A stretch of DNA of 64,000 nucleotides from an uncultured Saprospiraceae bacterium (GTDB lineage: Bacteria > Bacteroidota > Bacteroidia > Chitinophagales > Saprospiraceae), in contig CAKZUK010000010.1 in assembly GCA_937921775.1 (NCBI GenBank), forward strand, positions 12,037 through 76,036, written 5' to 3'. The notes beneath the pieces are model-generated. The model ran no database searches and was not told the origin of the DNA. It saw only the letters and a list, made by a program, of their open reading frames with translations. The position numbers and the translations under genes are program-made. This document shows positions 4,561 to 58,080 of this stretch, one piece after another; positions within the stretch are counted from its first letter, which is position 1, and the number at the start of each line of letters is the position of its first letter.

Positions 4561-4577
4561 AGTTTGCAGCAGCTCAC

Positions 4578-5315
4578 TTAATTCAATTTCCCTTCGGCAA
4601 CACAGGTCAAACCAAATAGCTTGTTCATCTTTCGAAAATTCATCTCAAAAGAATTGTATTGACGGAGTAACCAATTGACAGTACCAGGTAGTGGCGCCAT
4701 ATCAGAGGACTCCGGAGCTTCCATATTCTCATCATTTCGCTTCAAACGGCGCACGAGCCAAACCAATGGAAAAATTGAAGCAAAAATATAATAGCGCTGC
4801 GAAATAGCACATTTATTGTTAGTCATCAAGGCACTTAACATCGGAATGGTATATCTACGAAAATGTCCCAAATAAACATCGTGTGTAGACCAAACGCTCA
4901 TAAATGCAGGTACTGTAATGAAGTAATGTGCATTTTCTCCAACACGTCTTTTAATATCTTTTATGATCGCATCATCATTTTCGATGTGCTCCAATACATC
5001 CATCATAATCACCACACAATCATCGATACCTTCTGGAATATAGTGCAATTTCTTAACCGGAAGATGTTTTGTCTCTTCCAATTCATCTTCGGAGTATCCG
5101 ATATCAATCAACAAGACATCTTCGATATACTCTGGGAAAGCTGCCCACAATTCATAAGCAAAAAAACCAGAACCAGAACCAAAATCGATCACCGTCATTT
5201 TCTTGTTTTGCTCTTTTAGCAATTGTTTGAAATATCGAAACAAAGGCACTTTCTTTGATTGATAATACCAATGCGTTGATTGATCAACACCACTTTCTAA
5301 TTCTTTTAAATCCAT
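4578..5315 (-). CDS. Class I SAM-dependent methyltransferase
   Basis: 245 aa. Motif I VIDFGSGSGFF, acidic post-I LLIDIG, and VVIMMDVLEHI typical of the Methyltransf_11/23-like group. Its start lies 3 nt downstream of the stop of the upstream GT fusion gene. Confidence 0.8.
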   Translation of the reverse strand: MDLKELESGVDQSTHWYYQSKKVPLFRYFKQLLKEQNKKMTVIDFGSGSGFFAYELWAAFPEYIEDVLLIDIGYSEDELEETKHLPVKKLHYIPEGIDDCVVIMMDVLEHIENDDAIIKDIKRRVGENAHYFITVPAFMSVWSTHDVYLGHFRRYTIPMLSALMTNNKCAISQRYYIFASIFPLVWLVRRLKRNDENMEAPESSDMAPLPGTVNWLLRQYNSFEMNFRKMNKLFGLTCVAEGKLN

Positions 5316-5318
5316 GGG

Positions 5319-8300: not shown

Positions 8301-8345
8301 AGGACTATTCTTCAAAACTGTGGTCTTTTGTTTCTTTTTACTCAT
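5319..8345 (-). CDS. Fusion glycosyltransferase: N-terminal GT2 (polyprenyl-phosphate sugar synthase-like) + multi-TM GT-C (PMT/ArnT-like) + C-terminal TPR repeats
   Basis: 1008 aa. GT2 part: LIIPCYNE, ILVDDGSSD, LTLDADM, RDTQCGFK (aa ~23-250). About 12 hydrophobic helices span aa ~280-700, with ITGDE in the first loop. TPR-like repeats run from aa ~800 (AIRLYNQELAQRPKNEAAL..., YYYGIYYLNTADPQNAKASLEKAVDLN...). Confidence 0.8.
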   Translation of the reverse strand: MSKKKQKTTVLKNSPAKHKFSGKISLIIPCYNESKRIDNLLNTLKSFDKKWNQPLEIILVDDGSSDESVKLLDKNFPGQFSSNVDFHLIPLSKNIGKGGALKAGVEKATGDYVLTLDADMATKPTALNNWLNQLPGKDFDPNQILIGSREHEDSKVTGQPMRRVAGLIFNFMIQLFTNMNLRDTQCGFKLYPAAIAKQLFASLKTNGWAHDVELLYRAKMEGHRIQSMPITWTHQNDSKISLVSDSIKMFGQILMISIALNWNYFIVEPFKKWNAGTGESPIFRFLFLALSIFLLFLMPTISSDYGITGDELVQKTYGEKVYAYYQTDGEDKSALDYKNLYYYGGLFDYTAAWLNDKFPNADEYNIRHWLNALFGFIMIFFTGLLAKEISGSWRVAFIALLFIALSPRIFGHSMNNPKDIPFAAAYAFTLLYLIRFLKQLPRPGTKTILMLIIGVSAAINVRVGGILLIAYLGLFTGLSYLFRNDLKPKLRDFPHLAKIVGIGLLVAIGGYFGGLLFWPYGAQAPFKNPLTALSEMSNFSTSIRMLFEGKHLWSDELPWYYIPKYISICTPIVILIGGLLFLGFVFTKFNTQKRLPLLLLAFAGVFPIAYAVLKQSSLYDGMRHFLFVYPVLVVVAAWGWNQLINFKPLPAFKYGMGVLMAVLLAMPLKAMIDQHPYQYVYFNELSGGLEHAYTNYEMDYWMNSIKGMCEWLAENDERLKRGEKVSVITNCSDPAIFYMKKLAPSCKIYYSRYYDRLKKYPADYYMFIPRFVNEGHIDSGVWPPANIVYEEKVNGVTIGAISKRESPVERQAAEAEQAKNFTEAIRLYNQELAQRPKNEAALTGLIKTYQQTQDWPNMKATLDKLLPLGDSYNTAHYYYGIYYLNTADPQNAKASLEKAVDLNYKNSAAHYFLSSIYAQEGNHAKVVDAITLYDDTGGNIAQAYASGANSANKIGERALALYFQAKKAYFEKDYQGSFSLVKQSLNIDPDFEPAVKLNKVYEDSQKQN

Positions 8346-8574
8346 GAATGGTTATTTCCTTCAGAAATCGGTTTACAATTCGATTGACAAATATTAAAAA
8401 ATCTTTTTATAAGCCTGTATTTATGAAGGATTATTTACGAAAAGAGAAACCTTTGGCATTGTTACCGTATAGAAAGACTGTTTGTTACGTTTCTCAAGCA
8501 AATTATAGACGCTTTATCAATGTTTTACCAAAAATAATAGATTATTTTAGCCGCTCATTTTTAATAGAAAAAGT

Positions 8575-9783
8575 ATGACACCTGCAAAAACCTCCGTAAT
8601 CTCAGATCGCATCTTAAAAATGTCTGAATCTGCAACACTTAAAATGTCTCAAATGGCTCGTGAGTTAAGGGCAAAAGGCAATGATGTAATCAGTCTCAGC
8701 CTTGGTGAACCTGACTTTGACACACCTGAGCATATCAAAGAAGCTGCTAAACAAGCACTTAATGATGGATTTACAAAATATACACCTGTACCTGGATTGC
8801 CAGTTTTGCGTGAAGCAATTTCAAAGAAGTTCAAATCAGAAAACGATTTGGATTATGCTCCCAGCCAAATTGTAGTATCTAACGGTGCTAAACAATCCAT
8901 CTACAACCTCAGCATGGCTTTGCTAAATGAAGGTGATGAAGCGATTGTATTGGCTCCATATTGGGTTTCTTACTATGAGATCATTAAGCTAGGTGGTGGA
9001 ACTCCAGTAATCGTTTCTGCCGGCATTGAACAAGATTTCAAAGTAACTGCAGCCCAACTCAAGGCTGCCATTACACCTAAAACTAAATTTGTCTTATTCT
9101 CTTCTCCATGTAACCCAACAGGTTCTGTTTACCAACGAGAGGAGCTAGAAGCTTTGGCAAATGTCATCGCTGAGCATGAAAACATATTCATCATTGCAGA
9201 TGAAATATACGAATACATCAATTTCTCTAGCAAGCATGTAAGTATTGGCGCTCTTGAAGCTGCCAAAGATCGTACGATCACCGTCAATGGTTTTTCGAAA
9301 GGATTTGCTATGACAGGTTGGAGATTGGGATACATCGGTGCCCCTCAAATAGTTGCTAGTGCTTGTACCAAGATCCAAGGTCAGGTTACTTCAGGAGCAA
9401 CGGCTTTTGGCCAAGTTGCTGCTGCTGCTGCTCTCAATGGTGACCGCAGTACAACTTCAGCGATGCGAGACGCTTATTTAAAACGAAGAGACTTGGTAAA
9501 AGTACTTTTGGACGAAATACCCGGTGTAAAAACGAATAATCCTCAAGGTGCATTCTACATATTCCCAGACATTTCTTCCTACTTTGGAAAAAGCGACGGC
9601 AACATGACTGTCAATAATGCTGATGATTTTTGTGAATACTTACTGAACCATGCCTATGTAGCAGTTGTATCTGGTTCTGCTTTTGGAGCTGACAATTGTT
9701 TCCGAATTTCATATGCCGCTTCCGACGAGCAATTAAAGGAAGCAATCCGTAGAATGTCGGATGCGCTTGCGAAGTTAAAGTAA
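8575..9783 (+). CDS. Pyridoxal-phosphate-dependent aminotransferase class I (aspartate/prephenate aminotransferase type)
   Basis: 402 aa. Motifs SLGEPDFDTP, SSPCNPTG, NGFSKGFAMTGWRLGY (PLP-lysine motif), RISYA. Confidence 0.9.
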   Translation: MTPAKTSVISDRILKMSESATLKMSQMARELRAKGNDVISLSLGEPDFDTPEHIKEAAKQALNDGFTKYTPVPGLPVLREAISKKFKSENDLDYAPSQIVVSNGAKQSIYNLSMALLNEGDEAIVLAPYWVSYYEIIKLGGGTPVIVSAGIEQDFKVTAAQLKAAITPKTKFVLFSSPCNPTGSVYQREELEALANVIAEHENIFIIADEIYEYINFSSKHVSIGALEAAKDRTITVNGFSKGFAMTGWRLGYIGAPQIVASACTKIQGQVTSGATAFGQVAAAAALNGDRSTTSAMRDAYLKRRDLVKVLLDEIPGVKTNNPQGAFYIFPDISSYFGKSDGNMTVNNADDFCEYLLNHAYVAVVSGSAFGADNCFRISYAASDEQLKEAIRRMSDALAKLK

Positions 9784-9801
9784 AATTGGATCGACAATCT
9801 A

Positions 9802-9859
9802 AGTGTCAGTGGCCGTTTCTGTTTGCGTTCAATCGCGATTGAAAACCGCCACTGACACT
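9802..9859. repeat. Inverted repeat between convergent genes (12-bp perfect arms AGTGTCAGTGGC / GCCACTGACACT, 34-nt loop); possible bidirectional terminator
   Basis: Arms read directly at 9802-9813 and 9848-9859. It sits between the aminotransferase (+) and MATE (-) 3' ends. Confidence 0.45.
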
Positions 9860-9878
9860 ACCCGTCTAATTGAAAAGA

Positions 9879-11216
9879 TTACACTTTCAAGAGATGCCAC
9901 TTCTTCGTCCGTAAATACCAAACGGTTAGCCCCAACAAAATAATCCAGTAGAAAATCTCTCCTGCCCAGGCCCATTCTAATCCTCCATAGGTAAATTCTA
10001 CTACCACATAAATATAAACCATGTAAAACACAGCGCAGAGAAATTGAATTTTCAAACCATAATAAGTTGCACCCGTCCCAGCCAAACCATTAAAATATAC
10101 ACCTCCAACCGAAAACAGACTAAGGATACCCATCAAAACATAAAAAGTCGGCCTTGCTTCTGTAATCAATGACATATCCTCAGATCCCAACAATGGATAC
10201 AAAATATGTTCCGGCCAAATCACTACTGGCAAAGCCAATACCATGGTAACCATCCAACACAACTTCGCTGTTTTCCAAATCATAGGTTGCACTGCCTGTC
10301 GCTTTTGTTGACCAATTAGATTACTTACAATGGTATTGATACCCGAGGAGAATCCCCAACACGGAATCGACAAAAACAAGTAGACCATTCGCACCAAATT
10401 AGTAATGGCCAATTGACGCTCCCCAAGGTTTTCTACAATTCCAAAGAACACAAACCAACTTCCCAATCCAACCACCGCTTGAGCTACAATTGGAGTTGAG
10501 ATACTCAATTGCTTTTTTATAAGTGGTACATCAATCTTAGGAAACTTAAACAAATGGAAATCGCACACTTCCTCATCAAAGAAGATATAGATCACAAAAA
10601 TGACAAAGGCAATTATTTCAGCAATGGTACTTGCAACCGCAGCACCTCCAATCCCCATGGCTGGCAAACCGAAATGACCGAAAATAAGCGCATAGTTGAG
10701 TATGATATTGACAACGGCAAGAATCAAGGTATCAATGACGATAAAGGTCGTACGTGCAATTCCTGTATATAAGGCAATGATTGCCACTCCCATATAGCTA
10801 AAAAACACACCAAAGGAACGGTAATGGATATATTCTAGACTTTTTTCGTAAATAATATCGGAATTGACAAAGAGCGCAAAGAAGTATTGACAACCGTAAT
10901 ACATAAAGAGAAACATGACTATAGACAAACCCAACTCGAAATAAAGCATCGCATAAAAGGTTCTTCCAACCTCTTGAGGATTACCTTCTCCTGCCCGACG
11001 AGCAATCATAATCTGGCCTCCTTTAGAAAATCCATAGCCAATTGCAGCCACAATCAGATAGAAAACACTTACAAACCCAATAGCTGCAAAGTCAACTTCA
11101 CTCAAGTGATACAAAAACACACTATCACTCAAAGCTATCACATTCTGTACCGCTGAGCCCAACATGATTGGTGCTGAGATAGAGAAAATTTGTTTATATG
11201 ATGTGTTTAATTGCAT
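9879..11216 (-). CDS. MATE family efflux transporter
   Basis: 445 aa with 12 hydrophobic segments. The N-terminus IFSISAPIMLGSAVQNVIALSDSVFL is typical of MATE/NorM-like proteins. Confidence 0.85.
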   Translation of the reverse strand: MQLNTSYKQIFSISAPIMLGSAVQNVIALSDSVFLYHLSEVDFAAIGFVSVFYLIVAAIGYGFSKGGQIMIARRAGEGNPQEVGRTFYAMLYFELGLSIVMFLFMYYGCQYFFALFVNSDIIYEKSLEYIHYRSFGVFFSYMGVAIIALYTGIARTTFIVIDTLILAVVNIILNYALIFGHFGLPAMGIGGAAVASTIAEIIAFVIFVIYIFFDEEVCDFHLFKFPKIDVPLIKKQLSISTPIVAQAVVGLGSWFVFFGIVENLGERQLAITNLVRMVYLFLSIPCWGFSSGINTIVSNLIGQQKRQAVQPMIWKTAKLCWMVTMVLALPVVIWPEHILYPLLGSEDMSLITEARPTFYVLMGILSLFSVGGVYFNGLAGTGATYYGLKIQFLCAVFYMVYIYVVVEFTYGGLEWAWAGEIFYWIILLGLTVWYLRTKKWHLLKV

Positions 11217-11246
11217 CCGGGCCTCAAAAACGGCAATAATACCAAC

Positions 11247-12443
11247 TTATCCAAGTGCTTGCTCAAGATCAGCGATAATATCTGCTACATTCTCTATTCC
11301 TATCGACAAACGAACCAAACCATCTGTTATTCCATTTCTTTCTCTTACTTCTTTAGCAACATTGACGTGCGAGCTGGATGCTGGATGCAAAATGAGGGTG
11401 TCCACATCGCCTAAGGTAGGAGCAAGAGAACAGAATTTGATTTTATTCATGAAATCCATTCCTCCTTTAAAACCTGAATTCAGTTCAAAGCTCAACATGC
11501 CACCGAATTGACTCATTTGCTTTTTAGCAAGCTCGTGATCAGGGTGGGAGGGCAGGCCATTATAATTTACACGATTAACTTTAGGATGCTCTTCGAGATA
11601 CACTGCAACTGCCATTGCATTACTACAATGTCGATCCATTCTAACTTCTAAGGTCTTCAAACCATTATTGAGCAACCAAGCATCGAAAGGGTTGCAATTC
11701 GTACCCGCCAGCTTCATGGTTCCCCATACTTTTTTATGCATCAATTCAAGATCTTTCCCTATGATGATACCAGCAATTGAATTACCATGCCCATTCAAAT
11801 ATTTTGTTGTAGAGTGAATAACAAAGTCGACTCCAAGGCCAAAAGGTTGCTGCAAATAAGGTGTACAAAATGTGGAGTCAACCGCACTTTTAATGCCATG
11901 CTTATTCGCAATTTGAGCCAAAGCCTCGATATCCACACAAGCAAGTGTGGGGTTTGCTGGCGTTTCAAAATAGATCATCTTTATCTTTGGATCACCTGCT
12001 ACTATCGTTTCAACTTTTTCAATGTCTTGCAAATCTGTCATGACCGTTTCAATACCTAGTGGTCCCAATACCTTTAGCAACAATTCAGTCGTTCCTCCAT
12101 AGAGATTGCCTTGAGTCAACAACTTATCACCAGCTTGCAAACAAGACATTAATAGTGTTGAAATAGCAGACATTCCCGAGCTGCACAAAACGGCAGAAGC
12201 TTCCATGTCCAAGCCATAAGTTTCGAGCATCGCTATCTTGGTCGCCACTGTATCAATCGTTGGATTCCCATATCTGCCGTAAGAATGACCGCTTGCTTTG
12301 CCACTAAAAATATCAATCCCTTGATCTATACTTTCGAATTCAAAAGAAGACGTTTGATAGATCGGAAGTTGGTGCGGACGGGTGCTACGCTGATCCTTAA
12401 TTTCCTTAACGCAAAGTGAACCAAATCCTTTTGTCGATTTCAT
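11247..12443 (-). CDS. Cys/Met-metabolism PLP-dependent enzyme (transsulfuration family; MetB/MetZ/methionine gamma-lyase-like)
   Basis: 398 aa. Motifs PIYQTSSFEF, YGRYGNPT, HSTTKYLNGHG (PLP lysine), LAPTLGDVDTLILHPASSSH. Confidence 0.85.
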   Translation of the reverse strand: MKSTKGFGSLCVKEIKDQRSTRPHQLPIYQTSSFEFESIDQGIDIFSGKASGHSYGRYGNPTIDTVATKIAMLETYGLDMEASAVLCSSGMSAISTLLMSCLQAGDKLLTQGNLYGGTTELLLKVLGPLGIETVMTDLQDIEKVETIVAGDPKIKMIYFETPANPTLACVDIEALAQIANKHGIKSAVDSTFCTPYLQQPFGLGVDFVIHSTTKYLNGHGNSIAGIIIGKDLELMHKKVWGTMKLAGTNCNPFDAWLLNNGLKTLEVRMDRHCSNAMAVAVYLEEHPKVNRVNYNGLPSHPDHELAKKQMSQFGGMLSFELNSGFKGGMDFMNKIKFCSLAPTLGDVDTLILHPASSSHVNVAKEVRERNGITDGLVRLSIGIENVADIIADLEQALG

Positions 12444-12809
12444 AAAGATGTTATTTTTATTTGAACGGCTAATTTGGGGAGATTTTATGAGAAAAACTAC
12501 ATTTCTCTTTGCAAGATTTGTAGGTTTTGTGATGTGCCTTACATTTATTTACGAGCCGACCATCTTCATTAATAATAACATCTAAGGAGAAAGGTAGGAA
12601 ATACACGAAAATTTAAGATATTTGAGCCCTCACAGATCCAATCACCTAGTATAATCTTTGTATTAATATTATCTTTTTAGTTCCTTTTTACGGAATTTGC
12701 ATTACAACTATGGAGGCGAACGAAAATACTATAGCTTGACTTTGTTCGTTTTAACACAGTTGTTGTCCAATCAAAATATTCCAGAAAAACTGTCTCTTAG
12801 CTTGTTTAT

Positions 12810-15800
12810 ATGCGATTTATAACCACTATCTCTCTATTACTTTTTACTTTTTCACTTTTTTCACAGCGATCCTTTCCGGTCAAAGTGAATAAAAAGTGGG
12901 GACTCATGAATGCCGAAGGCAAACTAATCCTTCCTCCTGACTATGACGGAATTGGAGAGTTTAAACGCTTTGGATATGCTGTAATGCAGAAACAGGGAGC
13001 TGTAGGAATGATCGATTATCTAGGCAATGAAATTGTTTCCCCACAATACGACGACATCAAAATTCTTGACTCCATCCTCATCGCAGTGATGGATGATATG
13101 GAATGGATGGTTTTAAACATTGACGGCGAGATCGTTTTGGAAAAAGGATATGAAAAAGTCTATGTTTGGGAAGGTCGCTTTCTTGGATTCATGAAAGGTA
13201 AAAAATGGGGAATAGCAGATATCAATGGTCAAAAAATTTGTTCTCCAAAATACGACGAGATAAAACTGGAAAAAGAAAAGTATTTTAAAACAAGAGTTAA
13301 AGACAACTTTGGACTCATAAGCCTATCTGGCAAAGTCATCCTTGAACCTCTTTGCGATGATATTAGAATTTACAATGATAGCCTGTTCTTCTATCAAATT
13401 GAAAAGAGTTGGGGAGCAGTTGACCACACCGGGCGTGAAGTGATCCCTTCCAACTATGATGACTTTAAAAAAGTAGCTACGAATTTCATCTCGCTTACTC
13501 GTAACAAAAAACGATACTTATTTTCGATTCCTGAAGTAGCCATTGTTACAGATGGAGAATATGATGATTACTATTCTTTTTCTAATGATTTTGCCTTAGC
13601 AAGAAAAGATCAAAAATTAGGTTTACTTGACTTAAAAGGCAACTTGGTTTTGCCATTGCTTTATGAAGAAATCAGCACTTTTGATGGTGATCGATTTAGA
13701 GCAAAGAAAACCAACCTTTGGGGGATTGTTGGATATAATGACGAAAATATCTTGCCTTTCGAATTCGAATATATTGCACCACCTAAGGAACGAATCATCA
13801 TTTACAAACAAAATGGATTACTAGGCCTTCTTGATGGCGCATTAGAAAAAGCAGTTGATCCTGAATGGGATAAAATTGAAATCGCAGAGGGTCAAGCCAA
13901 AGCATTAAAAGGTAAAGAATTTAGTATCTTCTATTTTGACGAAGAAGGTATTATCCAAGATGAAAATTCTTTTGAAGAATTAATCACCATAAAAATAGGA
14001 GGTGATAGCAGAACCGCTCGCCGTACTTGGACTCTACAAGATAGAATCAATCCAAATATCTTAGATAACTTCGAATGGTATTATTCAGGTCGTGCTAGAA
14101 AATTTGGTCTTCGCAGACTTGACGATGGTTCCATTCAAATAGAACCTTCTTTCCATAACATTCAAGTTGAAAAGGAACTAGGATTTACAATAGTGGGACT
14201 CGAAAAATTAGGTTACTTTGACTACGAACGAACTTCTTATCGCTTTGAAAGTGTCCATGGTATTGTCAACAACGAAGTAGGACTCTTAGTGACTTCTGTC
14301 AATCTATGGGACATTAGACTGAAGGATTTTGACAACGGTAGTCGTGTAGCTCGTTGTCTGGATGAAAATGGTAGATATGGATTGGTCAGTAGAGACCCGA
14401 TTGGTTTGGTTATGGAAAAAGGATATGCTTACATCGGAGAATTCCATAACGGCCTTGCACGGATGAGCAAAAGAGGAAGAATATCTGGTTCTACTAAACG
14501 AAAAGACAAGGAACGCGGACTGGGCAATTTAGATATCGCATTGAATGAAATGATTGCCGCAAACTCACTGTTGGATTATACACTCTACGACCAAGAGTTT
14601 GAAACAGAAGCACAAATAATTTGCGAAGATTGTACCTGGGGATATGTAGACACCACAGGTGCCGTAGTTGTTGAACCACAATATTCTTTCGCTAGAAACT
14701 TCGTCAATGAAGTAGGGATTGTAAGTTTAGATAACAAATGGGGATTGATTAGTACCAAAGGAAAATCTCTAATTCCTTGTGAATACGACGGTCTTCATTT
14801 TATGGAAAGTACCAACAATGAAATTCTTCGCATCTACAACAATAATCAAAAATTTGGACTGATTGATACACTCGGCCAAGTTACAGTCAACCTAAAATAC
14901 GACAAAATCGGAGCCTTCCGTGAAGGCCGACTAGCAGTTAATCGAAATGGAATTTGGGGCTTTGTCAACCTTGACGGACAGGAAGTTATTCCTCCTCGTT
15001 TCAAAAAAGTAAACAACTTTCACGATGGACTTGCTTCTGTAAAGACAAGTCGAAAATGGGGATTCATTGACCAAAATGGGGATACTCAAATTGAGTTTAA
15101 ATTCCGTCGACTAGGAAACTTTAAAGATGGGCTTGCCTGGGCATACACCTACAAAGGAACCGGTTACATCAACACAGAAGGCAAGATGGTAATCCCTCCT
15201 GACTTCGACAAAGCTTTTGACTTTGAAGGAGACGTCGCTCGTGTTGTAGTCAATGGCAAATTTGGTTTAATCAATAGAGCAGGTGATTTCGTACAAAAAC
15301 CAAAATTCACCAACATCGATTCTTTCAATGAGTATGATGTTGCCATTGCACGATATGGGAATGATCGAATCCGATATGGCTTAGTCAACAAATCGGGAAA
15401 CCTCATTACTAAACAAAACTTCCGATCTATCCGACCATTTAAAGAAGGTCTTGCCGCTGTAAAGTATAGAGATGGCTATGGCTTCATCAATTCTAAAGGC
15501 GAGTTAGTGATAGATGATACTTATTCCAAGGTTTCTGAATTCTCAAATGGCCGTGCCGCAGTGCAGCGCGATGGCCAATGTGGTTATATTGACAAAGAGG
15601 GTAGAGAAGTGGTAGAACTTGAGTTTTCAAAATGTCTTGACTTTGATGAAGGTAAGGCCGTGGTTTATCGAGGTTACAGACAAGGAGGTATTATTGACAC
15701 CCTTGGTAATTTCATTATTGAACCTACATTGGATCGAATCCTTGACTTTAGTGATGGCCGTGGTTTGGTTCGCGACAAAAATGCCCGATTCTATTACATT

Positions 15801-16142
15801 ACTCAAGAAGCAGACATGTCGGATGGTTATTACCAAACAGCTGGTAGCTTTAAACATGGTGTTGCCGTAGTTCAAAGTAAAGGCCGATGGGGAGTGATCA
15901 ACCAAAAAGGAATTGAGATAATACCTCCAAAATATGATCGTATTGAATCTTTCGAAGGTGGTTATGCAAAGGTAGGCATTAAACGATTTAATGGTCTTAC
16001 AAACTTAAAGGGTGAATTGATTATCCAACCCGAGTATGAATACATTTCTTATGTTGGAGAAGGTTTATTCAGAATAGAACAGGGAGATAAGATTGGTTAT
16101 TTCAATACTTCTGGACGCTGGGTTTGGGGACTAAAAGAGTGA
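12810..16142 (+). CDS. WG-repeat (KWG/WG_beta_rep type) secreted protein, about 28-30 tandem repeats
   Basis: 1110 aa. Signal-peptide-like N-terminus MRFITTISLLLFTFSLFSQ. A ~35-aa unit recurs: KWGLMNAEGKLILPPDYDGI, KWGIADINGQKICSPKYDEI, KWGLISTKGKSLIPCEYDGL, KWGFIDQNGDTQIEFKF, RWGVINQKGIEIIPPKYDRI and others. Confidence 0.85.
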   Translation: MRFITTISLLLFTFSLFSQRSFPVKVNKKWGLMNAEGKLILPPDYDGIGEFKRFGYAVMQKQGAVGMIDYLGNEIVSPQYDDIKILDSILIAVMDDMEWMVLNIDGEIVLEKGYEKVYVWEGRFLGFMKGKKWGIADINGQKICSPKYDEIKLEKEKYFKTRVKDNFGLISLSGKVILEPLCDDIRIYNDSLFFYQIEKSWGAVDHTGREVIPSNYDDFKKVATNFISLTRNKKRYLFSIPEVAIVTDGEYDDYYSFSNDFALARKDQKLGLLDLKGNLVLPLLYEEISTFDGDRFRAKKTNLWGIVGYNDENILPFEFEYIAPPKERIIIYKQNGLLGLLDGALEKAVDPEWDKIEIAEGQAKALKGKEFSIFYFDEEGIIQDENSFEELITIKIGGDSRTARRTWTLQDRINPNILDNFEWYYSGRARKFGLRRLDDGSIQIEPSFHNIQVEKELGFTIVGLEKLGYFDYERTSYRFESVHGIVNNEVGLLVTSVNLWDIRLKDFDNGSRVARCLDENGRYGLVSRDPIGLVMEKGYAYIGEFHNGLARMSKRGRISGSTKRKDKERGLGNLDIALNEMIAANSLLDYTLYDQEFETEAQIICEDCTWGYVDTTGAVVVEPQYSFARNFVNEVGIVSLDNKWGLISTKGKSLIPCEYDGLHFMESTNNEILRIYNNNQKFGLIDTLGQVTVNLKYDKIGAFREGRLAVNRNGIWGFVNLDGQEVIPPRFKKVNNFHDGLASVKTSRKWGFIDQNGDTQIEFKFRRLGNFKDGLAWAYTYKGTGYINTEGKMVIPPDFDKAFDFEGDVARVVVNGKFGLINRAGDFVQKPKFTNIDSFNEYDVAIARYGNDRIRYGLVNKSGNLITKQNFRSIRPFKEGLAAVKYRDGYGFINSKGELVIDDTYSKVSEFSNGRAAVQRDGQCGYIDKEGREVVELEFSKCLDFDEGKAVVYRGYRQGGIIDTLGNFIIEPTLDRILDFSDGRGLVRDKNARFYYITQEADMSDGYYQTAGSFKHGVAVVQSKGRWGVINQKGIEIIPPKYDRIESFEGGYAKVGIKRFNGLTNLKGELIIQPEYEYISYVGEGLFRIEQGDKIGYFNTSGRWVWGLKE

Positions 16143-18506: not shown

Positions 18507-18557
18507 CTGTTTCATTTGAACCTTGGTGATTTTCCCTTCAGGCTTCAAATGAAACAG
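18507..18557 (+). terminator. Long hairpin after the YfcC-like gene (14-bp perfect arms CTGTTTCATTTGAA / TTCAAATGAAACAG)
   Basis: Arms at 18507-18520 and 18544-18557, 27 nt after the stop codon. The T-tail is weak (CGAAGTTTTC). Confidence 0.45.
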
Positions 18558-18726: not shown

Positions 18727-18734
18727 TAGATTTG
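18727..18734 (+). promoter_or_regulatory. Candidate Bacteroidota -7 promoter box TAGATTTG (TAnnTTTG)
   Basis: Exact match to the consensus, 33 nt upstream of the ATG at 18767. Confidence 0.35.
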
Positions 18735-18766: not shown

Positions 18767-21700
18767 ATGAAAAATTTAATCACAAAAAGGGCTGCCCACC
18801 TAACAATCGTAGCATTACTCTTTTCTAGTTTTGCTTTTACTCTTGTAAAAACACAACACCATCCGTTTGTAATTAACTTGCTAACACAACTCAAGCTGCA
18901 TAGCCAACAAGTGCAAAGTGAGAAAGTATATGTGCAGCTAGATCGAAATTTCTATCAACCGGGGGAACACATTTGGTTTAAGGCATACATTCGAAATGCA
19001 AATGGCCTCACCCAAACTGACATCAGCGACATCGTATATGTCGAATTGATTAATCCAAAAGGATCTGTCATTGGACGACAAAAGCTGATGGCAACGAATG
19101 GCTTAGGATCAGGTGTATTTCCCATTTCTGAGGATGTAGGTGGGATTTATAAAATAAAGGCATATACTTCTTGGCAAAAGAATTCCCAAACTACTTTTGT
19201 ACGAGATGTACAAGTTCAAAAGGTGGTATTACCTAACTTAAATATGAAACTAGACTTTGAAAGAAAGGCTTATGGTGCAGGAGATCAAGCTATAGCAAAT
19301 CTCTCTTTAGAAAGTTTAGACAACCTTCCTTTGCGTTATGCAAAATATGAATTCATCGTTCAAGTGGAAGGAAAAGAAGTACTTCGTCGAAAAGAAAGTG
19401 CCGACTTTGATGGTAAAGCAAGCATACAATTTAAACTCCCCAAAAAACTCAATTCAAACGATGCATTACTTCAGGTGATTATCCCACATAAAGGTGTAGC
19501 TGAATCAATTTCAAGATCAATTCCAATTGTTTTGAATGATATTGATCTACAATTTTTTCCGGAAGGGGGCGATCTGATTGCTGGTCTAAAAACTAAATTA
19601 GCATTCAAAGCTTTAAATGAATTTGGCAAACCTGCTGATATTGAGGGGGCTATTTATAACGCTTCTGGGGAGGAACTTTATGCTTTCAAAAGCTTTCATC
19701 AAGGAATGGGAAATTTAAATTTCTACCCTGATCGAAATGTAAAATACTACGCTAAAATTACCAAGCCAGAAGGCATTGCTAAAAAATATTACATTCCAAT
19801 TGTAAAGCCTCGAGGTTACAACCTCCATGTTTTATCACAAGATGATGAACAAATTAAAGTAAGCATTCAATCTACTCGATATACCGAATTGCATCTAGTT
19901 GCTCAAAACAATGACTTCATTCCTTTTTCAAAAACATTTATGATTGACAAGGAAACAACGATTAGTATTCCAATCAAAGATTTCCCAATGGGAATTTCAA
20001 AGCTGACACTCTTTGACTCTAAAGGCCAAGCACATTGTGAACGATTAGTTTTTGTCAATCCAAATAAGCATCTAAACATTTCGGTAAAAACCGACAAAGA
20101 AAAATATGCTCCACGAGAAAAGGTAGTAATGGATATCAACATAAGTGATCAAGAAGGTCATCCCGTAGCCGGTAACTTTTCACTTTCAGTCGCAGATAGC
20201 AAACTCCTTACTTTTGCTGATGATAAACAGGGACATATTTTTGCCAAAATATTTCTGGAGAGTGAACTAAAAGGAAAAATTGAAGAACCTGATTTCTATT
20301 TTAAAAAGGATGAAGCCAAAGCGATTGTCGGACTTGATTTATTAATGCAAACGCATGGATGGAGACGATTTGACTGGAAAGAAATCCAGAAAGAAGAACC
20401 AATTGCTTACACCTTCAAAAAGGAAGAAGCATTTATTGGAGGAAAAATAGTAAACGAATGTGGTGAACCGATTGTCAATGCCAGAATATCTGCGATAGGA
20501 CATGATTCCCATACTACAAGTAACGAATTTGGAGATTTCAAACTAAAAGGATTTCCATTTACTCATATCGGAAACAGAATTAAAATTGAATCTACAGGTA
20601 GAGCTTCTATCATAAAATCCGTTTCAGAATACAAACAAGATTTCTTCATCATTCAACCAGAAGGCTATGGGACAATATCTGGTAAAATATTACTTCCAAA
20701 TCGCACAAAAGCATCTGCTGCTTATGCAACTCTTTTTGATGACGAGGGCCAGCGATGGACAGGTAGGGTTTTTCAAAAACAAAATGAATATGCATTCAAC
20801 AATATACCTGCAGGTGAATACACGCTTCGTCTAAATCACCCTGGCTATAGATCTCATCAAGTCGAACGAGTTCGAGTTTGGGCAGGGACCAACATAAACA
20901 TTAGTCGAAAGCTAAAATCAAGCACTGATCCAACAGAAATATACGTTTCACAATTCAATAAAGAAATGGAGCAATCCAACAACGAATGGCTTAGCGCAAA
21001 AAATGACTTAAAAGCAGTAAGCAAGCAAAACACTCCTCCAGTTCATGAACTTGTTTTTCAAAAATCAAGGATTGCAGTTCGAGGTGGTGGAGTCAGTCTT
21101 GACGAAATTATTATTACAGAGTTCAAGGTTCCGCTAATCCAACAAGACAATACTACTCAAGGCGGCATAAAAACAGCGGAAGAAATTGCCAAATTACCCA
21201 CCAAAAACATTGGGGCTTTAGCTTCATCTGTAGCTGGGATGAGCCAGCTCGATGAAGGAGACGCCATTAATGTACGAGGTTCTCGCAGTAATGCAACGGA
21301 TGTTTATGTAGATGGCATTCGAGTAAATGCCAATGCCATTCAAAGTACTGACATCGAACAGATAGCTGTATTAACTGGCGGAATACCTGCCATGTATGGA
21401 GGAGGTTTATCACTTGACTTAAGAGCAAAAAAACGATACAATCCCCAATCAAAGTTTGATGGTAAACGCAATACAAACCTAATGGGGTATATAGACTATG
21501 ATGGCGATGATCAAGGATATGGTCTTGGATTAGGCGATGGAGGTTTTCAAAATACTGGAGAAGGGGCTAATAATTTTGTCGGAAATAATTATCGATATTC
21601 AAAACATAAAAAGTATAAGAAAACCCCGAAGAACATTTACCGACTAGTAGATCAGCGTCCCCAACTGAAATCAAAAGAATGTGAAAAAATAATGGATCCC

Positions 21701-24163
21701 GATGAATGTCAAGCTTGCTCTGACAATAAATTAATGGAACGTATTGAAACCGCCATCGAGAAAGCATATAAACACGGTAAGATGTACTCTGGAAATGCAG
21801 TCATTCATTTTTATGTAGATCGTAATGGTCAGTCTGGCGATGTCAACATTCATTTCGAAACTTCAGGCTACAACTACTATGTTCGAAATAGCATTACATC
21901 TGCTATAAACGACATTAAACCTAAAAAATGGCGACCAGCAAAGCTAAATGGACGCAGCGTCGCGAGTTGGTATTCCATCCCAATTGAATTTGGATATCCT
22001 GGTAAATATCAACAATCAAATTATACACCAACTAGAACTTTTTATGCACCAAAATATGAGACAAAGCAAGTCGTTGATCAAAGAAGTGATTTCAGGTCAA
22101 CGATCTACTGGAATCCAAATATTACTACAGATGAAGATGGAACTGCTAAACTAGAATTCTGGAATTCGGATGACCTCACTACTTTCACCACAACTATTGA
22201 AGGCTTTTCTAACAGTGGCCTAGTAGGAGCTACCGAGCACAAGTATTATACACAAATGCCATTTTCGCTTAGCGCAAAAGCGCCTACCTCTTTTCTGGTT
22301 GGTGATGAAGTTCGCCTACCAATTATCTTAACAAATAATACAGAGGAGACTATTGAAGGCCAACTTAACATTATTGTTCCAAGTTGCTTTAAACAATTAA
22401 AAGAAGTTGACTCCCAGTACATTTTACTTGCAGGTGAAAGTCGAAGCGTGTACCCAACTTATGAAGTTACACCCGACTGTACAAAAGACAAATTTGAGGA
22501 CAAAATTGAAGTCTCTTTTAAATCTTCCGGCTTCGGAGATGCATTTACTAAAAAGATCACCATACAATCCTCTGGTTATCCAATTTACGAAATGTTTACA
22601 GGCGGTGACACTTTAAATGTATTTGATCTAGACATCAAAGCACCTCGAAAAGGATCTATTAATATGAGATTGGATGCGCATCCTTCAGTACTCTCAGAAG
22701 TGATGTCAAGCTTGGAACGGATGCTCAGACAACCAGGTGGATGTTTTGAACAAACCAGTAGTTCCAACTACCCTAACATCATGGTGATGCAATACATGAA
22801 AAATCATCCAAATAATTTTAATACTAAAATTCAATCAAAAGCAAAATCCTACTTGGAGTCTGGCTACAAACGGCTCATCGGATACGAAGTAAAAGGAGGT
22901 GGTTTTGAATGGTTCGGCCATCCACCTGCTCATGAAGCGTTAACTGCTTACGGACTCTTGGAGTTCACAGATATGAAATCGGTTTATCCAGTTGATAAGA
23001 AAATGTTAGATAGAACTGCAAAATGGTTGTTAGGTCGTAAAGATGAAAATGGTAGTTGGAAAATATCAAACGCAGGACTGCACTCTTGGTTAGGTACTTC
23101 AGAAATTCGAGATGCTTATATTGTATGGGCATTATGCGAAGCAGGCTATGCTTCAAAAATAGGCTTGGAGATTGAAAAGTCTTATTCCGATGCATTAACA
23201 ACAGAAGACCCTTATATCATGGGACTTGTATGCAATGCATTATTTAAAGCAAAAGATAAGCGTGCTGAATCACTTTTAGAAATATTACTAAAAACGCAAG
23301 AGAAAGATGGTTCCTTTATAGGAAAAACGGCATCGGTTACAAGATCAAAGGGAAAAAATCTAATGCTTGAAACTACTGCTCTCGTTAGTCTAGCCATGAT
23401 GAAATCTAATCACGTTTCATTATTTGAATTGGAGCGAGCCATTACAACTATTGCCAAATCGAAAACACAATACGGTTTTGGTTCAACTCAAGCTACGGTG
23501 CTTTCACTAAAAGCATTGATTGAATATGAAGACTTTAAAAGCAAGGATGTATTGCAAGGAAAAATTGAACTATTAGTGGACGGGAAGGTGATTGATCAAT
23601 CCGTTCAATTTAATACGAAGCAATCGAATTCCATCGCTTTATCTGATCTTGGAAAATTCGTTTCAGAAGGTAAGCATACCGTAGAAGTGAGATTTGTGAA
23701 TAGTAAAAAAGCAATTCCTTTTGAGTTACAATTAAGCTACCACTCCAAACTTCCGCAGGTACAAGAAAGTGATTGTAAAGTTACTTTAAAAACAGATCTA
23801 AAGAGGGGAGAAGTACAACACGGAGAAACGCTTCGATTGACAACGGCTTTATCAAACAACACGGAAAAAGGACAAGCTTCACCAATTGCAATCATTGGGA
23901 TTCCATCCGGGCTTAGCCCTCAACCATGGCAACTCAAAGACATTCAGGAAAAGAAGTTAATCGACTATTATGAAATCATTGATGATAAAATTGTTTTCTA
24001 CTTCAATGGTTTAGAAGCCAATGAAACGCGAACAATTCACCTGGATTTGAAAGCAGATATCCCGGGTAATTTTGAGTCGCCAGCTTCTTGTGCTTATTTG
24101 TACTATGAGAATGATGTGGTGAATTGGGTCAATCCTAGTTCAGTTAGAGTCATGACAAATTAA
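18767..24163 (+). CDS. Alpha-2-macroglobulin/thioester-domain family protein with inserted CarboxypepD_reg, TonB-dependent-receptor Plug-like and TonB C-terminal-like modules
   Basis: 1798 aa with a signal peptide. MG-type repeats (DRNFYQPGEHIWFKAYI; KTDKEKYAPREKVVMDINISDQEGHPVAG) and an A2M block FRSTIYWNPNITTDEDGTAKLEFWNSDD. CxEQ thioester motif GGCFEQT (Cys codon 22742-22744). Plug-like segment nt ~21101-21410 and TonB_C-like segment nt ~21638-21997. Confidence 0.8.
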   Translation: MKNLITKRAAHLTIVALLFSSFAFTLVKTQHHPFVINLLTQLKLHSQQVQSEKVYVQLDRNFYQPGEHIWFKAYIRNANGLTQTDISDIVYVELINPKGSVIGRQKLMATNGLGSGVFPISEDVGGIYKIKAYTSWQKNSQTTFVRDVQVQKVVLPNLNMKLDFERKAYGAGDQAIANLSLESLDNLPLRYAKYEFIVQVEGKEVLRRKESADFDGKASIQFKLPKKLNSNDALLQVIIPHKGVAESISRSIPIVLNDIDLQFFPEGGDLIAGLKTKLAFKALNEFGKPADIEGAIYNASGEELYAFKSFHQGMGNLNFYPDRNVKYYAKITKPEGIAKKYYIPIVKPRGYNLHVLSQDDEQIKVSIQSTRYTELHLVAQNNDFIPFSKTFMIDKETTISIPIKDFPMGISKLTLFDSKGQAHCERLVFVNPNKHLNISVKTDKEKYAPREKVVMDINISDQEGHPVAGNFSLSVADSKLLTFADDKQGHIFAKIFLESELKGKIEEPDFYFKKDEAKAIVGLDLLMQTHGWRRFDWKEIQKEEPIAYTFKKEEAFIGGKIVNECGEPIVNARISAIGHDSHTTSNEFGDFKLKGFPFTHIGNRIKIESTGRASIIKSVSEYKQDFFIIQPEGYGTISGKILLPNRTKASAAYATLFDDEGQRWTGRVFQKQNEYAFNNIPAGEYTLRLNHPGYRSHQVERVRVWAGTNINISRKLKSSTDPTEIYVSQFNKEMEQSNNEWLSAKNDLKAVSKQNTPPVHELVFQKSRIAVRGGGVSLDEIIITEFKVPLIQQDNTTQGGIKTAEEIAKLPTKNIGALASSVAGMSQLDEGDAINVRGSRSNATDVYVDGIRVNANAIQSTDIEQIAVLTGGIPAMYGGGLSLDLRAKKRYNPQSKFDGKRNTNLMGYIDYDGDDQGYGLGLGDGGFQNTGEGANNFVGNNYRYSKHKKYKKTPKNIYRLVDQRPQLKSKECEKIMDPDECQACSDNKLMERIETAIEKAYKHGKMYSGNAVIHFYVDRNGQSGDVNIHFETSGYNYYVRNSITSAINDIKPKKWRPAKLNGRSVASWYSIPIEFGYPGKYQQSNYTPTRTFYAPKYETKQVVDQRSDFRSTIYWNPNITTDEDGTAKLEFWNSDDLTTFTTTIEGFSNSGLVGATEHKYYTQMPFSLSAKAPTSFLVGDEVRLPIILTNNTEETIEGQLNIIVPSCFKQLKEVDSQYILLAGESRSVYPTYEVTPDCTKDKFEDKIEVSFKSSGFGDAFTKKITIQSSGYPIYEMFTGGDTLNVFDLDIKAPRKGSINMRLDAHPSVLSEVMSSLERMLRQPGGCFEQTSSSNYPNIMVMQYMKNHPNNFNTKIQSKAKSYLESGYKRLIGYEVKGGGFEWFGHPPAHEALTAYGLLEFTDMKSVYPVDKKMLDRTAKWLLGRKDENGSWKISNAGLHSWLGTSEIRDAYIVWALCEAGYASKIGLEIEKSYSDALTTEDPYIMGLVCNALFKAKDKRAESLLEILLKTQEKDGSFIGKTASVTRSKGKNLMLETTALVSLAMMKSNHVSLFELERAITTIAKSKTQYGFGSTQATVLSLKALIEYEDFKSKDVLQGKIELLVDGKVIDQSVQFNTKQSNSIALSDLGKFVSEGKHTVEVRFVNSKKAIPFELQLSYHSKLPQVQESDCKVTLKTDLKRGEVQHGETLRLTTALSNNTEKGQASPIAIIGIPSGLSPQPWQLKDIQEKKLIDYYEIIDDKIVFYFNGLEANETRTIHLDLKADIPGNFESPASCAYLYYENDVVNWVNPSSVRVMTN

Positions 24164-24404: not shown

Positions 24405-24442
24405 GAGAAGCCTTGCAGGTGTTGCGGGGCTTCTTTTTTTTT
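24405..24442 (+). terminator. Rho-independent terminator (stem GAAGCCUUGC/GCGGGGCUUC, then 10 T)
   Basis: The hairpin has two G-U pairs that form only on the + strand. The T-run 24431-24442 follows. It lies 240 nt downstream of the A2M-like stop. Confidence 0.7.
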
Positions 24443-24493
24443 ATAAATTACTTTCTAGAATTAATAATTTACCTGTTTGGGTCAGCGAAGCAA

Positions 24494-24706
24494 ATGGCTA
24501 TCTCCAAAAATATTTTCCTTCTAAATTACAAATCAAAAATGGCACAAAATTTAATTGGAATTACATTAATAAGTTTTGGCTTTTTCATAGCTTGGTTTAC
24601 TATTAAAAACTATAAAAAATCAGATAAATACAGTACAGTTCGAACCTTTTGTGGTGCGCTTATAATAGCACTAATCGGCTTATTAGTATTATTTGATCTC
24701 TGGTAA
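24494..24706 (+). CDS. Small two-TM membrane protein (start uncertain; ATG at 24494 or 24539)
   Basis: The tracked ORF 24413..24706 begins with TTG inside the terminator hairpin, so I prefer an internal ATG. Two hydrophobic helices: LIGITLISFGFFIAWFTI and FCGALIIALIGLLVLF. Confidence 0.3.
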   Translation: MAISKNIFLLNYKSKMAQNLIGITLISFGFFIAWFTIKNYKKSDKYSTVRTFCGALIIALIGLLVLFDLW

Positions 24707-26941: not shown

Positions 26942-28105
26942 CTAAAGAGCATCAAAGGCAGACTCTAAATCAGCAATCAACCAATCGGCATCCTCCCAGC
27001 CAATATAAAAGCGAACCAAGCGCCAATTCGTGGTAGACTCCGACTCTTTACCCTCCAGCCCATGAAAGGCACAAAAAGGCAACACCAATGATTCATGACC
27101 TCCCCAAGAAACAGCCAATAAAAATCGTTTTAAGCGACGAAAAAAGATCTCAACCTGCTCCACATTATCTGCTCTTAGTATAATGGAAAACAAACCACCT
27201 GCGCCACGCATCTGGCGCTTAGCCAATTCATATTGAGGAAAGCTAGGATGAAAAGGATGTATAATCTCAGCAACTTTAGGGTGTTGTTCTAAATAAGCAA
27301 TGATCTTCTGCGCGCTAGTATTACTCCGCTCCATTCGAAGCTCTAGTGTTCGTAAACCCCGAATGACCAACGAAGCACTCTGAGGCGAAATAATTCCACC
27401 CAAGGTCATAAATTCTCCTTCAAATACCTGTCGAACAATATGTTTACTGGACGCTAAAACACCAACCACAACATCACTATGACCATTCAGATATTTAGTA
27501 GCCGAATGAACCACTATATCAATTCCAAAATCAATCGGATTTTGATAAATAGGAGAGGAGTAGCTATTGTCAATAATAGAAATTAAGTCATGCTTTTTAG
27601 CAATAGCTGCACAAGCTTCCAAGTCTTGCAATTTAAAAGTAGCAGAAGTCGGACTTTCTAAATACAATACCTTAGTATTATCCTGTATAGCTCCTTCAAT
27701 TGCTTTCAAGTCCGTTCCATCTACAAAGCTATGACTTACACCAAAACGCTTTAGAAAAACAGTCAACAGCTTATGCGTCCACGAATATGGAGACTCTACA
27801 CAAATTATATGATCCCCCGTTTGAACCTGACTAATCACAGCCGCAGAGATGGCTGCAACTCCAGACCCAAAAATCAAAGCATCTTCTGCATGCTCCAATG
27901 CTGCTATCTTCTTCCGGAGGATTGACACGGTCGGATTATTCCCTCGTGTATAAATGGAACTATTCATCTCATCTTTAATCGCTCTCCGAAAATCATCAAG
28001 TGTATCAAAAACAAAATTACTAGTTTGAATAATAGGAGGGGAAACTGCGTTGAAATAATGTTGACGATCCTCGCCCAAATGCGTTAGAATTTCACTGAGA
28101 TTCAT
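26942..28105 (-). CDS. Cys/Met-metabolism PLP-dependent enzyme (cystathionine beta-lyase / gamma-synthase-like)
   Basis: 387 aa. Motifs PPIIQTSNFVF, YTRGNNPT, HSATKYLNGHSDVV (PLP lysine), SWGGHESL. Confidence 0.85.
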   Translation of the reverse strand: MNLSEILTHLGEDRQHYFNAVSPPIIQTSNFVFDTLDDFRRAIKDEMNSSIYTRGNNPTVSILRKKIAALEHAEDALIFGSGVAAISAAVISQVQTGDHIICVESPYSWTHKLLTVFLKRFGVSHSFVDGTDLKAIEGAIQDNTKVLYLESPTSATFKLQDLEACAAIAKKHDLISIIDNSYSSPIYQNPIDFGIDIVVHSATKYLNGHSDVVVGVLASSKHIVRQVFEGEFMTLGGIISPQSASLVIRGLRTLELRMERSNTSAQKIIAYLEQHPKVAEIIHPFHPSFPQYELAKRQMRGAGGLFSIILRADNVEQVEIFFRRLKRFLLAVSWGGHESLVLPFCAFHGLEGKESESTTNWRLVRFYIGWEDADWLIADLESAFDAL

Positions 28106-51439: not shown

Positions 51440-51595
51440 AATTTCCTTTCTTACTGTGATTCTATTTACTTACAATAAGAAACAAAGCTAATCTCCAATC
51501 GTCTAAAAATAAACCATCTTCGACTTGTAAGATGGCGATAAAAATAGGTCTGAAATCACCTTGTTACAATATGTTTCTCGGATGAGATCAAATCT

Positions 51596-51637
51596 AAATA
51601 AGGAGCATCTTTTCAAAAAAAGATGCTCCTTATTTTT
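51596..51637. terminator. 18-bp perfect AT-rich hairpin (AAATAAGGAGCATCTTTT / AAAAGATGCTCCTTATTT) about 160 nt after the Clp-like stop
   Basis: Arms read directly with a 4-nt loop CAAA. The T-run is partly within the 3' arm. Confidence 0.65.
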
Positions 51638-51725
51638 GAAAAGAAACAGTTTTCTCTTTAACTTCATTCCATACCTTAGTTAACTTGACGACTTAAGCCT
51701 CATCTACACAAACCACTTATACAGC

Positions 51726-54578: not shown

Positions 54579-54597
54579 GCTAATATATGTTTCAGTC

Positions 54598-54634
54598 AAA
54601 AGCCTCGGTATCTACTTGACTCCGAGGCTTTTTT
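54598..54634 (+). terminator. Rho-independent terminator (AAAAGCCTCGG / CCGAGGCTTTT)
   Basis: 11-bp stem followed by TTTTTT, 20 nt after the stop. Confidence 0.8.
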
Positions 54635-55460: not shown

Positions 55461-55490
55461 ACTTAATTGATCTCTCCTCTTATTGAAAAT

Positions 55491-58058: not shown

Positions 58059-58080
58059 TCTTTTAACCCCACCCACCATT

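Follow-up and report, generated by a model that had tools for sequence, protein, structure and literature searches.

On contig CAKZUK010000010.1 of an uncultured Saprospiraceae bacterium (assembly GCA_937921775.1), a stretch of 64,000 nucleotides (positions 12,037 to 76,036 of the forward strand, here called the window) has been analysed. One of its genes, at 18767..24163, encodes a protein of the thioester-containing protein (TEP) kind, related to alpha-2-macroglobulin (A2M) and complement C3, in which a cassette of domains otherwise known from TonB-dependent transport occupies the place where A2M carries its protease bait. Judged from sequence, the family around this protein is a third type among the A2M/complement-like thioester proteins of bacteria, which is centred on the Saprospiraceae and has remained uncharacterised; a search of the literature has turned up no paper that deals with this architecture, with A2M in the Saprospiraceae or with anti-sigma factors of the A2M type.

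The open reading frame (ORF) on the plus strand is uninterrupted from its ATG start over 1798 codons for amino acids (aa), and all peptides quoted in the original prediction are present in its translation. The domain order expected from a Pfam search has been obtained as well, namely MG2 (aa 53-142, 50 bits vs a cut-off of 32.8), CarbopepD_reg_2 (aa 557-615, 37.6 bits), CarboxypepD_reg (aa 636-712, 45.1 bits), Plug (aa 802-880, 44.9 bits vs a cut-off of 23.9, E 1.9e-11), TonB_C (aa 1008-1075), A2M (aa 1112-1201), TED_complement (aa 1308-1587, 96 bits) and A2M_recep (aa 1710-1783, 27.9 bits). TonB_C is the weakest call, its 20.5 bits (E 6.8e-4) in the search with the whole protein lying under the cut-off of 24.6. 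A weak match to A2M_BRD (aa 361-477) has been seen in addition, and bMG10 is the sole bacterial macroglobulin-like (MG) family of Pfam that is matched, with a score exactly at its cut-off. The barrel family of TonB-dependent receptors (TonB_dep_Rec_b-barrel) is matched nowhere in the 1798 residues, which agrees with the description of a Plug without a following barrel, and neither ANATO nor NTR/C345C is matched in them. A scan of NCBIfam has returned no meaningful family for the protein, and PADLOC no match to a defence system.

The assignment as a thioester-type A2M/TEP protein with a conserved cysteine has held up in the Pfam matches, the relatives and the modelled fold. The Cys codon at 22742-22744 lies, as predicted, within GCFEQT (22739-22756, aa 1325-1330) inside the TED_complement match, and GCFEQ is kept in 120 of the 120 best relatives. 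In a BLASTP alignment with C3d (E 4e-10), His1439 (in GLHSW) falls on the catalytic His of C3, and the same alignment pairs the GCGEQ thioester motif and the GSTQAT motif of C3d with their counterparts in the query. His1439 has the C3-type spacing of ~110 residues past the thioester Cys, and a His is found at its position in 102 of the 120 relatives; human A2M has Asn there. In C3 and C4B, the catalytic His permits reaction of the thioester with hydroxyl groups, and His1439 hints at a similar reactivity here. An AlphaFold model of aa 1085-1798 (mean predicted local distance difference test score (pLDDT) 86.9, pTM 0.82) places helices at aa 1308-1588 and resembles native C3, C5, A2ML1, CD109, frog A2M and TEP1 (Foldseek, TM-scores of 0.65-0.71 normalised to the query), as against only ~0.34 for activated C3b or induced A2M. 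Because of this difference, the C-terminal half is predicted to be in the native arrangement with the thioester buried. The best sequence matches in the Protein Data Bank (PDB) are human A2M, CD109, A2ML1, TEP1 and C3, and we infer by analogy that the thioester forms and captures its target covalently after proteolysis.

At the N-terminal side, query residues 48-169 align in the PDB sequence search with residues 102-221 of C3 and 126-231 of human A2M, i.e., with their MG2 domains, and only ~20 mature residues lie ahead of this region; an equivalent of MG1 therefore seems to be lacking. The first 40 residues contain no Cys, so the signal segment has no lipobox, and no C-terminal domain of the type IX secretion system (T9SS) has been found in the thioester protein by Pfam, though one other protein of the window has one. 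Together with an invariant Cys pair and membrane-anchored relatives (both described below), this makes the periplasm the presumable location. A segment resembling the LNK region directly precedes the insert and is highly conserved (identity 0.60-0.74 to close relatives), with low pLDDT in the isolated fragment; it has served as a pattern for the family search.

The insert (aa 551-1109) lies between the A2M_BRD match and the A2M domain, and residue 600 of TEP1 has been aligned to query residue 1101 in the PDB sequence search, both of which place it at the bait-region position that had been proposed. By these alignments, the site is the one at which A2M has its bait and C3, C4 and C5 have the anaphylatoxin domain. 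The four foreign modules described there are real according to Pfam, segment profiles and the matches of relatives, with TonB_C alone as a borderline assignment. In an AlphaFold model of aa 440-1215, the two sandwiches (aa 551-722) are predicted with confidence, and MG7 begins after residue 1109. The first sandwich resembles the N-terminal extension (NTE) of SusC (9hfj, TM-score 0.82, normalised to target length) and carboxypeptidase D (5aq0) in Foldseek. The linker behind the sandwiches is modelled as a helix at aa 727-752 with low pLDDT afterwards, and it leads into a TonB-box-like motif for which the family consensus is LxEVVVTxYKVPLI and of which a similar run is present in most Plug-bearing relatives. 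A profile of the Plug segment matches only transporter plugs in the PDB, namely Cir (E 1.6e-3) and Fiu; the Plug is shorter than that of Cir, of which ~12 residues stay unmatched in the profile alignment, and past a GG(I/T)PA.(F/Y)GG motif it passes into a disordered linker. In Bt1763, the TonB box DEVVVTG likewise follows the NTE domain, the SusC NTE being Pfam 13715 (PMC7782687). A bona fide transporter encoded in the genome of a relative shows the same succession of sandwich, TonB box and plug, and because of this shared order the cassette can be read as a barrel-less SusC-type N-terminus with a TonB_C-like domain behind it.

For the TonB_C-like domain, the segment searched alone reaches 24.8 bits (E 3e-5), seven of eleven close relatives also match the Pfam family, and in the PDB a profile of the segment matches TonB C-terminal domains and nothing else, if weakly (E ~0.06). 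AlphaFold predicts aa 948-1078 as a confident alpha/beta domain (pLDDT 90-97), and the invariant Cys pair before its core is consistent with a periplasmic disulfide. On these grounds of sequence similarity, the TonB_C-like domain and the rest of the cassette are assigned to the Ton machinery of Bacteroidota as their source. The profiles have been needed for this, a single-sequence PDB search with aa 543-1100 having yielded no match at E <=1; Foldseek with the model of aa 440-1215 has returned mostly tandem beta-sandwiches, which is no help in confirming the TonB_C or Plug fold. An artefact of assembly or gene fusion, by which an A2M gene, a transporter fragment and a TonB gene would have been joined, is practically out of the question: nothing has been found in its favour, the gene is a single uninterrupted ORF, and the architecture is shared by 12 independent species genomes and by many proteins from metagenomes (38-48% identity).

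The search for homologues has returned 1876 sequences at E <=1e-5, the top 120 of which each score above 1200 bits and whose source names are domain names only. Relatives have been found in 359 species-representative genomes; the best 80 of these are nearly all metagenome-assembled genomes (MAGs) of Saprospiraceae, Lewinellaceae or Chitinophagales, and the closest relative among them is 67% identical and belongs to a Saprospiraceae MAG. In the 120 best relatives, the part between the thioester Cys and the C-terminus keeps about the same length, but the proteins as a whole measure between 1512 and 1979 aa; a Plug segment like that of the query is present in 71 and a TonB_C segment like that of the query in 11. 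Among 69 full-length genes from genomes, 57 encode a Plug, 17 a TonB_C and 14 both, and the combination with a short signal-type N-terminus is found in 12, the window gene included. Some relatives have other beta-sandwich families (Big_1, SdrD_B, PEGA) in their Pfam lists. The insert is thus a variable cassette, which differs between paralogues and species. Several genomes have at least two paralogues, sometimes ~30 kb apart and with differing N-terminal types (L053 and L076 on contig CALFBH010000007.1; L012 and L038 in one MAG). The cluster representative P0001, which comes from an ENA contig of 63,485 bases, differs from the translation of the window at a few residues only, e.g., N564D, T599A, I908L and P1051S, so that a near-identical strain exists in public data.

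These counts bear on the proposal that Plug and TonB_C gate one another within the chain, which we have not been able to uphold. Examination of their packing in the AlphaFold model has been uninformative or negative, as AlphaFold leaves the Plug segment unfolded (pLDDT 30-45) and its secondary-structure output assigns no strand to the TonB box, and only 14 of the 57 Plug-bearing relatives have a TonB_C. Because the other 43 have none, the Plug must mostly work without a TonB_C in cis; docking to the Ton machinery in trans would be a plausible form of contact.

Sequence conservation separates the parts of the cassette sharply when the query is compared with its 12 closest relatives of the same architecture. 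Identity is lowest in linker 1 (0.08-0.12 over aa 721-760, with ~20% gaps) and linker 2 (0.09-0.11 over aa 881-940, gaps 0.34-0.42), is intermediate in the beta-sandwiches (0.17-0.33) and the TonB_C-like domain (0.21-0.35), and rises in the TonB box and Plug (aa 781-880) to 0.49-0.60, level with the MG/TED core. The hypervariable disordered linkers resemble baits and are likely to be such, the short linker at aa 1079-1109 being possibly a third cleavage region, and the constraint on TonB box and Plug implies a conserved partner.

Taking these features together, we propose, by analogy with characterised thioester proteins and with about equal expectation that it will hold or fail, a periplasmic trap or sensor that is triggered by proteases and docked to the Ton machinery through its Ton modules. 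Proteases that reach the periplasm would cut the exposed hypervariable linkers (aa 721-777, aa 881-955 and possibly aa 1079-1109), cleavage would free the MG ring from constraint and expose the thioester, as in A2M, C3 and TEP1, and the exposed thioester would couple covalently to nearby amines or, by way of His1439, to hydroxyl groups, the target being the intruder or nearby envelope material. Meanwhile, the conserved TonB box and plug would bind the TonB of the cell and the TonB_C-like domain the TonB boxes of transporters, and these contacts would hold the trap at the Ton-dependent gates under the outer membrane, a function that is served by a lipid anchor in the Escherichia coli A2M (ECAM) and by MagB in the case of MagD. 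Where relatives are membrane-anchored and paired with a sigma factor of the extracytoplasmic function (ECF) class, the same event would also send a signal to this factor.

Several observations count against the proposed docked trap. The Plug region (aa 811-947) is not confidently folded in the AlphaFold model (pLDDT 30-45), so that it may be a binding module, a segment folded by its partner or one that is protease-labile. The TonB_C-like domain and the sandwiches evolve fast, for which a role as spacer or in variable recognition would fit equally well. The shortest members of the family (~1520 aa, e.g., 1520 aa in Aureispira sp. CCB-E) have sandwiches only, without Plug or TonB_C, and Ton docking is therefore not essential to the core function of the family. 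No Ton-system or transporter gene has been found as a conserved neighbour in the loci examined, and both the localisation and the cleavage of the signal peptide are inferred. Some of these points would suit an inert product of domain shuffling, in which sandwiches, Plug and TonB_C serve as spacers or as an enlarged, partly unfolded bait of a plain periplasmic protease trap that binds nothing of the Ton system: the barrel-less Plug is not confidently folded, short members do without the cassette, and further beta-sandwich families are among the Pfam matches of some relatives. We nevertheless consider such a product rather unlikely, since the TonB box and Plug are strongly constrained at identities of 0.49-0.60 as compared with ~0.1 in the linkers, are kept in 57 of the 69 full-length relatives, and since real baits are hypervariable instead of conserved.

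A second form of the family has been recognised among the 69 full-length relatives, 26 of which carry an N-terminal motif, HEFDFNPxAWxKMExLLD, that belongs to no Pfam family and is followed by a transmembrane helix and a low-complexity linker of ~100 aa before the same body. As the motif is cytoplasmic in this topology, the thioester body behind helix and linker is predicted to be periplasmic. In 25 of these 26 (loci among L011-L090), an ORF for an ECF sigma factor ends at or just upstream of the start of the thioester gene, and a Plug is present in 24. In the three loci with called genes, sigma ORF and thioester gene lie at 7372-8004 and 8001-13715 (L003), 4444-5004 and 5001-10766 (L007), and 4378-5016 and 5001-10313 (L009), overlapping by 4-16 nt. 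The 43 signal-type genes all lack the arrangement. Among them is the window gene, whose protein has the short signal-type N-terminus and whose upstream neighbour encodes a DcuC transporter. Gene arrangement and topology suggest that the sigma-coupled relatives are thioester-protein anti-sigma factors.

The sigma-coupled relatives give some substance to a force-gated sensor, in which TonB would pull on the TonB box by means of the proton-motive force and the unfolding of the plug, with or without proteolysis, would trigger the A2M-type rearrangement and, where an ECF sigma factor is coupled, its release as well. The coincidence of sigma ORF and Plug in these relatives recalls TonB-dependent trans-envelope signalling, TonB box and Plug are as conserved as the catalytic core amid hypervariable flanks, the TonB-box-like run recurs in most Plug-bearing relatives, and the prevailing lack of an in-cis TonB_C means that the box would meet TonB in trans. 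We still regard force gating as decidedly unlikely, as activation of a thioester protein by force is without precedent, the model does not show the Plug folded into a unit able to resist force, the window protein has no sigma partner, and a protease bait explains the hypervariable disordered linkers better. The broader notion of a thioester switch coupled to both the Ton motor and transcription, in which TonB pulling, alone or with proteolysis, fires the rearrangement, anchored paralogues release the ECF sigma factor and the window protein is a soluble effector version, appears to us quite improbable; if true, thioester proteins would for the first time be known as anti-sigma factors, and bacteria would have in them a module to 'sense, tag and signal'.

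A TonB box is bound by a TonB_C-like domain as an added strand, and a decoy has been considered on this general basis. In such a decoy, the TonB_C-like domain would catch bacteriocins or similar toxins by their TonB boxes upon import, and the plug with its TonB box would mimic the periplasmic face of a transporter, by which the intruder would be positioned for covalent capture. The fast evolution of the TonB_C-like domain and the sandwiches is as expected for surfaces in an arms race, and cassette content differs among paralogues and species. This entirely speculative reading is highly improbable in our view, as a TonB_C is present in only 17 of the 69 full-length relatives, the thioester would not be exposed by binding alone, and no toxin or immunity genes lie nearby in the window or in the loci of relatives examined.

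The coordinates of the gene and its features are collected in Table 1. The gene stands 286 nt behind its upstream neighbour, the DcuC gene, and its putative promoter carries a match to TAnnTTTG, which we take to be the -7 promoter element of Bacteroidota; a sigma-70 promoter scan addresses another promoter type. The hairpin downstream suggests that the gene is monocistronic, and it is followed by a small ORF, a MazG gene on the opposite strand and a gene for a VWA protein. With these neighbours, the earlier remark that pbpC is not adjacent has been confirmed; pbpC is likewise missing from the loci of the four relatives examined for it. No conserved operon partner has been found, the neighbours differing in every signal-type locus examined.

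Some further observations concern the surroundings of the gene. Right after the stop codon of DcuC, a 14-nt inverted repeat, ctgtttcatttgaa / ttcaaatgaaacag (18508-18521 and 18544-18557), is possibly a terminator that lacks a T run. The small ORF downstream (97 aa, 24413-24706) has no Pfam match and a TTG start inside the hairpin at 24405-24435; if it is a gene, its true start is probably further downstream. Elsewhere in the window, a protein of 1110 aa (12810-16142) has 13 matched stretches of WG_beta_rep (WG-containing) repeats (E 7.8e-147), and two pyridoxal-phosphate enzymes of Cys/Met metabolism together with a class I/II aminotransferase flank the A2M gene region on both sides (8575-12443 and 26942-28105). 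The region 48230-62304 encodes a double-AAA protein similar to ClpB, a hybrid histidine kinase of the 7TMR-DISM type whose output domain is AraC, an S8 subtilase and a BNR/sortilin protein, and because the latter has a T9SS sorting domain, a Bacteroidota host that secretes by this system is confirmed.

Table 1. Features of the thioester protein gene and its flanks, in window coordinates.
Feature	Position	Strand	Basis
Candidate -7 promoter element TAGATTTG	18727..18734	+	match to TAnnTTTG, 33 nt before the start codon; putative
Whole gene, thioester-containing A2M/TEP-like protein, 1798 aa	18767..24163	+	ORF translation, Pfam, homologues
Signal peptide or signal anchor MKNLITKRAAHLTIVALLFSSFAFTLV, no Cys	18767..18847	+	sequence, N-termini of relatives; cleavage presumed
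MG domains, probably MG2 to first part of MG6	18908..20206	+	Pfam MG2, alignments; MG count estimated from length
LNK-like segment LLTFADDKQGH...HGWRRFDW, directly before the insert	20207..20416	+	conservation
First carboxypeptidase-regulatory-like (SusC NTE-type) beta-sandwich	20435..20656	+	Pfam CarbopepD_reg_2, pLDDT 86-96, Foldseek
Second carboxypeptidase-regulatory-like beta-sandwich	20672..20902	+	Pfam CarboxypepD_reg, confident model
Hypervariable linker 1, aa 721-777, helix then disorder, candidate bait	20927..21097	+	conservation, pLDDT
TonB-box-like motif LDEIIITEF, aa 778-786	21098..21124	+	sequence, family consensus
Plug core, aa 787-880, no barrel after it	21125..21406	+	Pfam Plug, segment profile, conservation
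Hypervariable low-complexity linker 2, aa 881-955, K/R/G/N/Y-rich, candidate bait	21407..21631	+	conservation, pLDDT <50
TonB_C-like domain, aa 956-1078, invariant C972 and C984	21632..22000	+	Pfam, profile, pLDDT 90-97
Short disordered linker, aa 1079-1109, into conserved R.FY.PKY...R.DFRST, counterpart in position of C3 alpha'NT	22001..22093	+	pLDDT <50, conservation
A2M domain (second part of MG6 and MG7)	22094..22369	+	Pfam A2M aa 1112-1201; TEP1 600 = query 1101
Thioester domain (TED), alpha/alpha toroid nested between beta-sandwich halves	22688..23530	+	Pfam TED_complement, model
Thioester motif GCFEQ (Cys1326, Gln1329)	22739..22753	+	sequence, 120/120 relatives
His1439, aligned with the C3 catalytic His (VIHQEM)	23081..23083	+	BLASTP vs C3d, codon checked
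MG8 / receptor-binding-type C-terminal domain	23780..24154	+	Pfam A2M_recep and bMG10, beta-sandwich in model
Terminator-like hairpin, 14 pairs, then T run	24405..24435	+	~240 nt past the stop codon

The family is abundant in Saprospiraceae, and if the proposed mechanism is true, it would explain by what means a covalent trap is stationed or triggered at the outer-membrane import gates of bacteria, its sigma-coupled relatives would illustrate a possible link from thioester-protein activation to gene expression, and it would offer a tractable bacterial model for the evolution of activation modules in thioester proteins. A folded cassette of Ton domains at the activation site parallels the insertion of the anaphylatoxin domain by which C3, C4 and C5 are defined.

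Comparison with the eukaryotic TEPs (A2M, A2ML1, CD109, TEP1 and C3/C4/C5) shows a common plan of MG domains, an insertion in MG6, MG7, a nested TED and MG8. The CxEQ motif is shared, and the best PDB matches in sequence and in structure, the latter in native conformation, are from this group. With C3, the protein has in common the His aligned with the catalytic one, and with C3, C4 and C5 the presence of folded domains at the bait position in place of a bare loop. Unlike the eukaryotic proteins, it is bacterial and presumably periplasmic, seems to have no MG1 equivalent and carries CFEQ where they have CGEQ; in contrast to C3, C4 and C5, its insert is made up of sandwiches of the NTE type, a TonB box plus plug and a TonB_C, and both the anaphylatoxin domain and C345C are missing.

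The known bacterial A2Ms have been described as tethered periplasmic protease traps, of which type I is ECAM-like, has a thioester and is linked to pbpC, and type II, the MagD-like one, lacks the thioester and belongs to the six-gene mag operon; ECAM is tethered by its lipid anchor, and MagD is held by MagB (PMC5764988). With type I (ECAM/YfhM of E. coli and SaA2M of Salmonella), the protein shares its nature as a bacterial, thioester-bearing, A2M-like protein that is exported to the periplasm and presumed to trap proteases (PMC5764988, PMC4498604), but it lacks the lipobox Cys and an adjacent pbpC, its TED fits the eukaryote-type TED_complement, and among the bacterial MG families only bMG10 is matched. 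Chains of ECAM or SaA2M are found neither among the PDB sequence matches at E <=0.01 nor among the top 50 structural matches. MagD of Pseudomonas (type II) is similar in that it, too, is A2M-like and periplasmic, and it functions in a state tethered to partners in the envelope (PMC5764988); it differs by the absence of a thioester and by its place in the mag operon, whereas the present gene has the thioester motif and stands alone.

The cassette itself is to be compared with two components of the Ton system. SusC-type transporters have at their N-terminus a CarbopepD_reg-type sandwich, a TonB box and a Plug in the same order, and the plugs of Cir and Fiu are homologous, but their 22-strand barrel is replaced here by a disordered linker and the TonB_C. 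Proteins with the TonB C-terminal domain in Bacteroidota agree in motif pattern, fold and Cys pair, the relative P0038 having the typical PQFPGC...C, and differ in that the domain is here internal (aa 956-1078), diverged to a score at or just below the Pfam cut-off, and lacks an N-terminal TonB anchor. The family fits neither type I nor type II, because its chassis is nearer to animal A2M, TEP and C3, has a C3-type His and seemingly no MG1, and carries a swappable Ton cassette.

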